IMG/VR virus record: IMGVR_UViG_2703719349_000001
Span: 1-9,106 of that record
Source: a virus
Lineage: Duplodnaviria > Heunggongvirae > Uroviricota > Caudoviricetes
Length of the DNA stretch: 9,106 nucleotides
Reading direction: 5' to 3' (one strand)
Numbering within the stretch: position 1 is the first letter of the stretch; every line of letters starts with the position of its first letter. Of this stretch, positions 2,191 to 3,267 are shown one piece after another. Below the pieces are notes generated by a model. The model was not told the origin of the DNA. It did not search any database and saw nothing but the letters and a program-made list of their open reading frames with translations. Position numbers and translations under genes: made by a program.

Positions 2191-2846
2191 TCCGCTTCCT
2201 GAATATTGATTCTGCCATTCCGGGACGTTACACTGTTCAGGCACCTTATAAAACGGGTGCCGGGATTGGCGTCCTAGAATTGCATACGGCGACAATTGGC
2301 GCGTTAGCGTCTTTTTTGTTGCTACAACTCAGCTATACCCAAATTATGGTGGGCTGGGTGGGGGCACCGAAAGGTGCGCCGGTTTCCGTATGCGCCGGTT
2401 ACGCCAACCCTGCTCAGTTCACCACCAGCGAAATTGGCGTTTCCGGTGGTGGAAGTTATCCATTGCATACGGAGGCTGCCATCATGGCTACAGACCCAAC
2501 TTCCCCATACCTGAAAATCGAAGTCGTCAACGGCAAGGCCGTTATTTTCTCCCTGCATGTTGCCTGCCATTTCAAGCGCATGCACCAGAACATCGTCGAC
2601 AAAATCGAGTATCTGAACTGCTCGCGCGAATTTTTTACCCGCAATTTCATACCGGGTACTTATCACATCTATGGTGACTCCCTGCGTGGTTATTACATCA
2701 CCCTTGATGGCCTGATGATGCTTCAGCTTGGGTTAAGTCTACGCACAATGCGGTACTACGAGAGCTGCATTGAAGCATTCCATGAGGCAGGGAACAGCCT
2801 GAATCTTACCGCTTTCCGCCGTAATCAGTGGGAGGCGCGTCCATGA
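2187..2846 (+). CDS. Divergent Rha-family paralog with the same N-terminal module; alternative internal start at 2484
   Basis: ATG 2187 preceded by AAGGAGG (2173-2179), ATGA overlap with upstream stop. C-terminal part keeps the Rha pattern (FSLHVACHFKRMHQNIVDKI...EFFTRNF...YITLDGLMML). Internal ATG 2484 has SD GGAGG (2471-2475). Ends ...WEARP. Confidence 0.7.
   Translation: MIRFLNIDSAIPGRYTVQAPYKTGAGIGVLELHTATIGALASFLLLQLSYTQIMVGWVGAPKGAPVSVCAGYANPAQFTTSEIGVSGGGSYPLHTEAAIMATDPTSPYLKIEVVNGKAVIFSLHVACHFKRMHQNIVDKIEYLNCSREFFTRNFIPGTYHIYGDSLRGYYITLDGLMMLQLGLSLRTMRYYESCIEAFHEAGNSLNLTAFRRNQWEARP
2221..2264 (+). repeat. Ultra-conserved 44-nt block (copy 2) inside the N-terminal module of Rha paralog 2
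   Basis: 43/44 identical to 1361-1404, at the same offset from the start codon (860-nt periodicity). Confidence 0.85.
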
Positions 2847-3037
2847 TTAGTTACGAAATTATTATTTCCACAACTGAATACAGAAACGATGTATCAGTTC
2901 GCACGGATGTATCTGTCTGGCACCGTCGCTATAAATCCAGAAAAACGGCAGAACTGAAAGCGGCAGAGATGTGTGAAACCATCTCAATGAAAGGTAGCCC
3001 GGTTAAATACGTAACTACGGCGGAGGTGCGTCCATGA
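2843..3037 (+). CDS. Small hypothetical protein (64 aa), AT-rich cassette
   Basis: ATG 2843 preceded by GGGAGG (2830-2835), ATGA overlap with upstream stop. Ends with the same -AEVRP tail and junction motif as the Rha genes. No recognisable domain. Confidence 0.5.
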   Translation: MISYEIIISTTEYRNDVSVRTDVSVWHRRYKSRKTAELKAAEMCETISMKGSPVKYVTTAEVRP

Positions 3038-3267
3038 TCCGCCACATCGTTAATTTCCTGTATCACCGATACAACCATTGCCCCCGTGTGGGGCAGTGGT
3101 TCACCACCAGCAACGGCCACGTTCTGCGGGTTTGCCTGGTCAATACAGAAAGCCAGAAGGTTGTCTGCCAGGTTCAGGGACGTACTCATACCCTGAGTTA
3201 TCCGCTGGTGGCGTTTCAGTCCGGAAAAATGTTTAAACGCCTAGGAGGTGGCTATGCGTCCGTCTGA
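3034..3267 (+). CDS. Small hypothetical protein (77 aa)
   Basis: ATG 3034 inside the exact 21-nt junction repeat (3022-3042), SD GGAGG 3022-3026. Several Cys/His (HCPRVGQW...CLVNTESQKVVC). No recognisable domain. Confidence 0.5.
   Translation: MIRHIVNFLYHRYNHCPRVGQWFTTSNGHVLRVCLVNTESQKVVCQVQGRTHTLSYPLVAFQSGKMFKRLGGGYASV

Follow-up and report, generated by a model that had tools for sequence, protein, structure and literature searches.

An optional cassette gene and a constant, remotely DUF4222-like gene between the Rha units and the replication initiator of a Shiga-toxin-type lambdoid prophage

The DNA analyzed here comprises positions 1 to 9,106 of the virus record IMGVR_UViG_2703719349_000001; this whole stretch of 9,106 nucleotides (nt) is called the window in the following. 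It represents the early rightward region of an Escherichia coli lambdoid or Shiga toxin (Stx)-type prophage, with the genes read on the plus strand. Between genes of the Rha family and the replication genes two small open reading frames (ORFs) are found, termed ORF-A and ORF-B below. An original prediction made from the letters alone had described them as accessory cassettes of 64 and 77 amino acids (aa). Both could be confirmed at 2843-3037 and 3034-3267, and both are already deposited in databases as hypothetical proteins. The features on which the analysis is centered are the following:

2843-3037, plus strand: ORF-A, optional cassette gene, 64 aa from ATG, phrog_7046; pI 9.3, predicted order strand-strand-helix-strand-strand
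3034-3267, plus strand: ORF-B, 77 aa, phrog_1153; pI 10.2, predicted N-terminal helix and SH3-like barrel
2175-2191, plus strand: junction copy at the stop of Rha gene 1 and the start of the next leader ORF; GGAGG, 7-nt spacer, ATGA
2831-2847, plus strand: junction copy GGAGGCGCGTCCATGAT, 5' edge of the ORF-A cassette
3022-3038, plus strand: junction copy GGAGGTGCGTCCATGAT, 3' edge of the ORF-A cassette and start of ORF-B, 191 nt after the previous copy
3243-3256, plus strand: AGGAGG ribosome-binding site and ATG of the initiator, read from the sequence within the last ORF-B codons (...KRLGG...)
3254-4147, plus strand: O-like replication initiator, phrog_270; C-terminal domain shared with SfV orf39

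As had been proposed, both ORFs are wired into the same junction system as the Rha genes, with copies of GGAGGYGCGTCCATGA at their ATGA overlaps. The motif occurs in exactly three copies in the window (2176-2190, 2832-2846 and 3023-3037, all on the plus strand), and each copy combines a GGAGG ribosome-binding site, a 7-nt spacer and an ATG that overlaps the TGA of the previous gene. Stop and start overlap in this manner at 2187, 2843 and 3034, followed by the 14-nt overlap at 3254; a degenerate fourth copy of the motif is located at 1315. Across 161 related loci the motif was found on the coding strand only. Where it is followed by ORF-A or ORF-B, at least four different genes were seen to end at it, all of them terminating in E-(V/A)-(R/H)-P. 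The modules on its two sides are combined almost independently of each other, with an adjusted mutual information (AMI) of 0.06. Neither a sigma-70-like site nor a terminator-like hairpin was found on the plus strand within or flanking 2843-3267, and no promoter-like or terminator-like site on this strand separates the second Rha gene, ORF-A, ORF-B and the initiator.

Judged by their substitution patterns, ORF-A and ORF-B are real genes under purifying selection. In the annotated frames the ratio of nonsynonymous to synonymous substitution rates (dN/dS) amounts to 0.15 for ORF-A (24 distinct coding sequences) and to 0.22 for ORF-B (53 distinct coding sequences). Shifted frames give values above 1.2, with the exception of one antisense frame at 0.28-0.30, which is expected because this frame shares its third-codon positions with the sense frame. 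The values bear on the idea that both ORFs are chance open frames, or that they overlap a functional antisense or non-coding element. An 86-aa minus-strand ORF at 2929-3189 does overlap both genes, and its low dN/dS could be read in this sense. As the sense frames score lower still, homologues hold length and frame down to 45-50% identity and no Rfam match lies in 2843-3267, the probability of this idea is considered close to nil.

Family searches returned little. At threshold, no family in Pfam, NCBIfam or PADLOC was obtained for either protein, and both fall into PHROG families of unknown function (phrog_7046 for ORF-A, phrog_1153 for ORF-B). Sequence searches against solved structures gave no matches, and neither sequence nor fold matched described anti-defence or defence families. 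When the ORF-A and ORF-B set was compared by hhalign with YmfM, Fil and Dhr of phage 186, and Cnr, epsilon and orf151 of P4, probabilities did not exceed 3% for any pair. The statement that no domain is recognizable is thus correct insofar as neither ORF has a characterized homologue; it does not hold for ORF-B as a remote member of the DUF4222 family (see below).

ORF-A is a genuine optional cassette of 191 bp. The unit lies between two junction copies, and exactly these 191 nt are missing in Stx2_EH2201 and many other relatives, which keep a single junction copy. Among 69 loci seeded on the initiator (fetched via the initiator C-terminal domain) 19 carry ORF-A, and in two loci (L010 and L107) the gene is placed inside the array and does not adjoin ORF-B. 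Its presence is nearly independent of the type of the upstream gene (AMI 0.02) and of the downstream gene (AMI 0.10). ORF-A DNA was detected in 179 of 5,426 complete E. coli genomes, in one copy each. The AT-richness that had been noticed at its beginning was also found, with 29.3% G+C at 2843-2900, among the lowest 0.2% of 58-nt segments; ORF-A as a whole has 43.6% G+C in comparison to 50.9% for the window.

Relatives of ORF-A are few. A search of 5.8 billion clusters yielded 29 of them at E <= 1, all from Enterobacteriaceae (E. coli, Salmonella and Enterobacter), and tblastn against 50,697 phage records gave three records only at E <= 1, neither P1 nor P7 among them. In all 51 distinct contexts a same-strand C4-like RNA, described below, is located 400-650 nt upstream. 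The most divergent relative (45% identity; locus L286, 4001-4207) overlaps with its start the end of an IS110-family transposase gene by 8 nt; it lies at a contig end, in a context unlike that of all other relatives. The AlphaFold2 model of the protein reaches a mean predicted local distance difference test score (pLDDT) of 95.7, and an invariant R-x-Y-K...A...A stretch is found at the helix start of this basic protein. No characterized relative was obtained despite the confident predicted fold.

Several of these properties could be expected if both ORFs were accessory genes in their own right, serving anti-defence or superinfection exclusion and having no relation to the modules beside them: ORF-A is patchy in its distribution and narrow in its hosts, its 5' part is low in G+C, and it encodes a small basic protein without known relatives. 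Against such independence, ORF-A is always tied to C4/Rha operons, ORF-B is invariant, and neither gene has a promoter or terminator of its own, for which reason they are not classical morons. The precise-boundary presence and absence typical of morons was found for ORF-A only. PADLOC gave no hit, and the score of ORF-A against AcrIC8 is within the noise for a 64-residue alpha/beta protein. We consider it rather improbable that both genes are independent in this sense. For the ORF-A protein taken by itself, its position favours a small effector that binds proteins and acts on the lytic switch or in the takeover of host or helper, to which we would give almost an even chance; an anti-defence role and a role as DNA-binding regulator are alternatives of clearly lower and mutually similar likelihood.

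While the proposal of accessory cassettes stands for ORF-A, it has to be given up for ORF-B. This gene is the constant leader gene of the replication module, not a cassette. It was found in each of the 69 initiator-seeded loci whose upstream DNA sufficed, before either of two N-terminal alleles of the initiator, and the same 14-nt overlap with the initiator is annotated in the RefSeq entry of a related locus (L001). SfV (orf38), mEp460 (gp42), ST64B (unannotated), cdtI and Stx2c phages have homologues with about 50% identity at the corresponding position. The initiators behind them share only the C-terminal domain with that of the window (67% over 122 residues for SfV orf39). The association of ORF-B alleles is closer with the initiator behind them (AMI 0.26-0.37) than with the gene before them (AMI 0.16-0.21). 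A C4-like RNA on the same strand lies a few hundred nt upstream in 95 of 96 distinct ORF-B contexts. Only 22 representative clusters among 1.84 billion were obtained for ORF-B. Multi-stretch profile matches to three long proteins (P0084, P0092 and P0095 with 2,295, 1,104 and 536 aa) were discarded by eye as repeat or compositional artefacts, and the small ORF upstream of a related initiator in the 75/02 Stx phage (gp14) showed no similarity.

The predicted structure of ORF-B (pLDDT 76) consists of an N-terminal helix and a five-stranded barrel resembling SH3, Tudor and KOW domains. A function as analogue of a CII-type activator as in lambda was ruled out, since SfV possesses a separate CP76-type CII (orf36) besides orf38; the predicted fold is, moreover, a beta-barrel and not the helix-turn-helix of a lambda CII-type activator.

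With the ribosome-binding site and start of the initiator located inside ORF-B, the gene might act in cis only, as a leader ORF that delivers ribosomes to the initiator start and prevents polarity, its peptide being functionless. Every initiator of this group is indeed preceded by an overlapping ORF of the DUF4222 family. Precedents exist in phage 186, where according to a record note translation of orf84 is needed for translation of the A gene, and in Gifsy-1, where the nucleotide sequence of orf45 is conserved and its protein variable (PMC4825925). Selection argues otherwise, as the protein is constrained in ORF-B (dN/dS 0.22) and in DUF4222 (0.10 at saturated synonymous divergence), and the family shares a conserved motif pattern and a compact predicted fold. 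This alternative is accordingly judged improbable.

The closest described family of ORF-B was found in DUF4222. In Pfam, DUF4222 (PF13973) is the top match with 13.9 bits and an E-value of 0.042, which does not reach the cut-off of 27 bits. Alignment of 39 ORF-B-family sequences with 29 DUF4222 sequences by hhalign resulted in a probability of 79% and an E-value of 1.6e-5 over 51 columns. PHROG matches between the two families are reciprocal: the DUF4222 ORF of prophage e14 matches phrog_1153 at 7e-7, and ORF-B and SfV orf38 match phrog_1343 (DUF4222) at 0.003 and 0.007. Both families have about 50 residues with the pattern W-F-x4-G-x4-V-x5-E-x-Q-x-V...P-L-x2-F in common, and in both the genes are small and extend over the start of a replication gene. 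In phage SaltyDalty, a bona fide DUF4222 ORF (E 1.8e-13) overlaps the start of a homologous initiator. At 30 loci in Enterobacterales genomes a CP76-type regulator is usually followed by DUF4222 and this by the initiator, with stop and start overlapping in most; in satellites of Enterobacter it is the start of a P4-alpha-type primase that DUF4222 overlaps. From these profile comparisons ORF-B is assigned as a remote, diverged homologue of DUF4222 with a predicted SH3-like fold.

Differences between the two are also evident. ORF-B bears an extra N-terminal helix, stays below the Pfam threshold and forms a PHROG family of its own (phrog_1153). Its family is only found behind C4/Rha cassettes, whereas canonical DUF4222 loci lack a C4-like RNA upstream. 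Both types occur side by side in one operon of Citrobacter braakii (locus L258, 1804-3718) in the order CP76, DUF4222, C4/Rha, ORF-B-type gene, initiator. Since this operon holds both paralogues, it suggests a joint spread of the C4/Rha cassette and a duplicated, DUF4222-like gene at its 3' side. ORF-B looks like a paralogue of DUF4222 that moves along with C4/Rha cassettes and by which the overlap with the initiator is re-established.

Several DUF4222 ORFs are hidden in existing annotations. They were located at 3011-3190 in locus L003, at about 2764-2979 in SfV (L161), at about 2466-2680 in mEp460 (L163) and at 2480-2701 in locus L247, in another frame under the N-termini of genes annotated as 'Ant', 'Rha', 'transcriptional regulator' or 'YmfM'. 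Stx1_14040 Ant, SfV orf37 and mEp460 gp41 are among the genes covering them. Each hidden ORF has its own GAAGG or GGAGG ribosome-binding site, and the annotated N-terminal extensions over them are probably wrong.

A related observation was made for the E. coli K-12 prophage e14 (locus L248), where an unannotated DUF4222 ORF (5002-5181) runs in the +2 frame of ymfM (4823-5161) and overlaps the start of ymfN. Across genera its dN/dS is 0.10, with synonymous divergence saturated. The ymfM frame is open as well in 27 of 27 diverged sequences in comparison to 6.7% expected, so the overlap looks like genuine dual coding as far as the sequences tell. A ymfM-like overlapping frame over ORF-B is not consistently open. 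The e14 ymfM/SfiC region (Ansari et al., doi 10.1101/2020.11.19.390815) resembles the locus studied here in its slot, between a CP76-type regulator and a replication gene and overlapping the start of the latter. The likeness is to the DUF4222 ORF in another frame of ymfM, however, since annotated YmfM has no similarity to ORF-B. The filamentation clone D1-8E holds the e14 DUF4222 ORF as a whole (PMC3614548), and the pBAD-ymfM ORF clone holds all of it but the last 6 codons. The filamentation clones contain both frames, and either product may be SfiC.

This situation leads to a further alternative, according to which ORF-B and the DUF4222 proteins are host-directed early proteins, inhibitors of division of the SfiC type or of host replication, that are placed for co-expression with the replication genes. 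It would be supported by the conserved DUF4222 ORF within the DNA annotated as ymfM and its presence in clones causing filamentation. Phage 186 likewise encodes the division inhibitor fil and the host-replication inhibitor dhr between a CP76-type cII and its replication genes. The linkage of DUF4222 to non-homologous replication proteins could also be explained by a host target. On the other hand, the conserved openness of the ymfM frame indicates that YmfM is probably real and may itself be the inhibitor. ORF-B and DUF4222 have no sequence similarity to Fil, Dhr or annotated YmfM, ORF-B is only a remote relative of DUF4222, and known prophage division inhibitors are not fixed beside replication genes. 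We regard a host-directed function as unlikely, though as the most serious of the alternatives.

Instead, it is tentatively preferred, with a chance somewhat below one half, that ORF-B acts in the replication step, either as a small partner in initiation or as its modulator. This preference results from the invariant overlap with replication genes of three kinds, from retention of the gene in gene-poor satellites and from the presumed stoichiometric co-translation with the initiator. As ORF-B carries the ribosome-binding site of the initiator, the two would be made in a fixed ratio.

Upstream of ORF-A, more than protein genes are present. The 'Rha array' of the original prediction turned out to be composed of units in which an isrK/C4 antisense-RNA unit is followed by a Rha gene:

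1327-2190 and 2187-2846, plus strand: two long ORFs, Ash plus Rha by Pfam
1381-1457, plus strand: isrK-like small RNA element of cassette 1 with an intrinsic terminator hairpin at its end; Rfam RF01394, 67.3 bits (gathering score 50)
1482-1569, plus strand: C4/CI-type antisense RNA of cassette 1, hairpin-2 loop at about 1523-1534; Rfam RF01695, 83.6 bits (gathering score 45)
1607-1616, plus strand: predicted pairing site for C4 copy 1, TCACCAAAGA, a 10-nt loop complement that leads into the ribosome-binding site of Rha gene 1
1627-2190, plus strand: Rha gene 1, AnrP-like, antirepressor-type; Pfam Phage_pRha 3e-26, conserved start GGAGGCTGCCATCATGGCTAC
2241-2317, plus strand: isrK-like element of cassette 2; Rfam RF01394, 54.9 bits
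2342-2429, plus strand: C4/CI-type antisense RNA of cassette 2, its loop (about 2383-2394) differing from that of cassette 1; Rfam RF01695, 80.7 bits
2465-2473, plus strand: predicted pairing site for C4 copy 2, GCATACGGA, a 9-nt loop complement that leads into the ribosome-binding site of Rha gene 2
2484-2846, plus strand: short Rha-like gene 2, 120 aa, stop overlapping the ORF-A start; Pfam Phage_pRha 2.5e-6, below threshold

All isrK and C4 matches exceed the gathering scores and lie inside the 'Ash' parts of both Ash-Rha ORFs. We compared six cassettes, namely the two of the window and one each from SfV, a Stx1 phage, a Salmonella satellite and an Enterobacter satellite. In each, a stretch of 9-10 nt in the hairpin-2 loop of the C4-like RNA has its complement about 80 nt further downstream, at a site that runs into the Shine-Dalgarno sequence of the conserved Rha start. 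Loop and target sequences differ among the six cassettes yet always match each other, and a match of this kind was also found for the second C4-like RNA of the Salmonella satellite. The cognate duplex of C4 copy 2 was the most favourable among those tested. According to these matches, the Rha array can be described as an array of putative riboregulated units of the P1 immI and Gifsy-1 isrK type with different specificities. We do not claim the junction itself as a C4 target, as full-length duplex energies were no better than those of shuffled controls (z -1.9 to +0.8), with the exception of the degenerate copy at 1315 (z -3.4).

The long ORF from 1327 corresponds to an orf45-like leader fused in frame to Rha gene 1. 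For the 'Ash' or orf45-like leader, taken as the 300 nt upstream of each Rha ATG in the related loci (in the window, 1327-1626 and 2187-2483), dN/dS values of 0.79, 0.81 and 0.97 were obtained and no frame stands out. The frame in phase with Rha is nevertheless free of stops in 64 of 64 distinct sequences, as if the leader must be translated through but its protein were immaterial. The pattern would fit an orf45-type leader as in Gifsy-1. Such a true leader is without frame-specific constraint, unlike ORF-B, which adds to the points against a functionless ORF-B peptide.

An observation on the Pfam family itself belongs here. PF10554 (Phage_ASH) matches the obsolete 'cI gene product' ORF of P4 (locus L287, 8168-8584, minus strand), which overlies the CI RNA (Rfam C4 at 8420-8507, isrK-like at 8615-8692); P4 epsilon belongs to another family, PF25738. 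The 'Ash domain' appears to be a conceptual translation of the conserved isrK/C4 RNA region. Papers in which PF10554 marks epsilon (PMC8628076) or is treated as a domain of a protein (PMC8951638) may have to be reconsidered.

Taken together, we consider it probable, though by a modest measure, that the two genes are the last links of a coupled early operon, with ORF-A as optional payload and ORF-B as leader of the replication module. The chain would lead from the isrK-like and C4-type antisense RNAs to Rha, via ATGA overlaps to ORF-A and ORF-B, via the 14-nt overlap to the initiator and further to the DnaC-like and DnaB proteins, as the early rightward operon of an Eru7-type Stx/lambdoid prophage. 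The junction would pass ribosomes from gene to gene, from Rha gene 2 to ORF-A, ORF-B and the initiator, and is at the same time a direct repeat of 16-17 nt at which whole cassettes would be gained or lost by recombination. Translational coupling down the chain is suggested by its overlaps. Control by C4-like RNAs may then extend to ORF-A, ORF-B and replication, as antisense-RNA control of a Rha gene would reach the replication genes via the coupling. ORF-A rides behind putatively C4-controlled genes in prophages as well as in satellites of the P4-like and phage-inducible chromosomal island (PICI) types. ORF-B would act with the replication module, whereas ORF-A would be an accessory payload.

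Several points weigh against this picture. The hhalign probability linking ORF-B to DUF4222 is no higher than 79%, the Pfam cut-off is not reached, and the structural model of ORF-B is of moderate confidence, as it stems from a shallow alignment. DUF4222 is of no known function, hence the homology confers no activity on ORF-B, and the link of DUF4222 and ORF-B to non-homologous replication proteins fits a host-directed function equally well. In addition, the related loci are mostly close relatives, so that the counts given above do not represent independent events.

A more far-reaching proposal seems rather doubtful to us at present. DUF4222-family proteins might be a widespread, unrecognized component of replication modules, SH3-like and made in a fixed ratio with the initiator, which gates initiation or couples it to the arrest of host division. 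In this case the e14 DUF4222 protein would contribute to SfiC or be SfiC, and the Eru7 replication module would be under control of the C4/isrK type, affecting the induction of Stx phages.

Outside the central region the following genes complete the upstream part of the window:

58-453, plus strand: Rha-family gene, 3' end
up to 1330, plus strand: Bro-N/ANT gene

The latter is contained in a 340-aa 'Ant' ORF (308-1330) with an implausible N-terminus of 86 residues (MDCCRVALLLLW...), which overlaps the end of the preceding Rha gene. Because the Bro-N domain begins only at residue 87, the true start is probably near 518-540. A terminator-like, G+C-rich hairpin was found on the minus strand at 478-458. 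The initiator gene is followed by a DnaC/IstB-like ATPase, the DnaB helicase, an 85-aa ORF, a DUF968 protein and the Q antiterminator, in this order. In the middle of the O-like initiator gene three 21-nt repeats (CAGAGAATACNACAGAGAKTA) with 12-nt spacing occur at 3708-3752 and encode ENTTEITSENTTE. The origin of phage lambda is located within its O gene, and by analogy these iteron-like repeats are candidate origin iterons.

Close relatives of the window include Stx1a- and Stx2a-converting phages, phiP27 and many chromosomes of Shiga-toxin-producing E. coli. With Stx2_14040 among the matches, the window fits the Eru7-type replication region, for which this phage is the reference (PMC8951638). 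According to the same survey, Eru7 is particularly widespread among Stx phages in Europe, and nothing is known on the replication of Eru7 phages; the small ORFs are not discussed there, and 'Ash' is taken as a protein domain of unknown function (PMC8951638).

Junction-mediated mosaicism and C4/isrK riboregulation are of kinds already known. New are the placement of ORF-B in the DUF4222 superfamily, the rule of an overlap between genes of the DUF4222 family and the starts of replication genes, in prophages as in satellites, the recognition of the Eru7 'Rha/Ash' genes as putative RNA-switch cassettes feeding a coupled chain into the replication module, and the occurrence of ORF-A in both prophages and satellites. 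ORF-B and DUF4222 thereby represent a constant small gene whose physical coupling to the initiator recurs in many prophages and satellites of enterobacteria. With the replication genes at the end of a chain starting at C4/isrK-type switches, these switches could set replication and toxin output of Stx prophages. ORF-A, as a portable payload of prophages and satellites, is a candidate for interference between phage and satellite or phage and host. The analysis also points to likely annotation errors, in the Pfam Ash family and where DUF4222 ORFs are hidden under ymfM, SfV orf37, mEp460 gp41 and the 'Ant' of a Stx1 phage.

Several known systems can be compared with the locus. Junctions of lambdoid phages, reported in work on HK97, HK022 and HK620, are said to be conserved gene-boundary sequences for module exchange. 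The window shares with them a short conserved boundary sequence with differing genes on either side. In contrast to those sequences, its boundary is also a ribosome-binding site, an ATGA overlap and the last 4-5 codons of the upstream gene (E-V/A-R-P), and therefore suggests a translational role as well.

The Gifsy-1 isrK-orf45-anrP locus resembles the window in the isrK-like RNA, the nucleotide-conserved leader ORF, the AUGA overlap and the Rha-type antirepressor. For Gifsy-1 it was demonstrated that the synthesis of AnrP depends on translational coupling at the AUGA overlap (PMC4825925). Hershko-Shalev et al. 2016 (PMC4825925) also note a fusion of orf45 and anrP in S. dysenteriae, which with its 287 aa equals the 1327-2190 ORF of the window in length. 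Different from Gifsy-1, two units are present in tandem in the window, and the chain proceeds from them through ORF-A and ORF-B to the replication genes. A continuation of this kind is not treated in the Gifsy-1 study, and the locus described there contains neither of the two ORFs.

In the immI region of P1 and P7 (c4 RNA, icd, ant) the loop of an antisense RNA of the C4 family likewise pairs with the ribosome-binding site of the first downstream gene. From the work of Citron, Biere and Schuster, the downstream genes are reportedly expressed by coupling. The payload in the window is of the Rha type and not Ant, no Icd homologue was found, the tblastn search with ORF-A having reached no P1 or P7 record, and the operon runs on into replication genes.

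The left operon of P4 (CI RNA, epsilon, orf151, cnr, alpha) corresponds to the locus in that a C4/CI-type RNA and small effector genes are followed by a replication gene. The CI RNA of P4 works through premature transcription termination. P4 itself contains neither ORF-A nor DUF4222. Both are found in islands of Salmonella and Enterobacter (L280 and L283-L285) that were identified as P4-like/PICI-type satellites, with ORF-A directly behind the RNA element and DUF4222 directly before the alpha-like primase. Their order is integrase, int-alpA RNA, AlpA, isrK/C4 unit, ORF-A homologue, small ORFs, DUF4222 and alpha-type primase. As the junction motif GGAGGTGCGTCATG is conserved on both sides of the satellite ORF-A homologues, the arrangement points to an exchange of ORF-A cassettes between prophages and satellites. 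In the Salmonella satellite L280, the Rha gene is shrunk to a 26-aa leader (MAV...ATEVHH) whose ribosome-binding site is the C4 target, and the order from C4 via this target and the leader leads through the junction directly to ORF-A. ORF-A is there the first real payload of the putative RNA switch, in the slot taken by icd and ant in P1 and by epsilon in P4.

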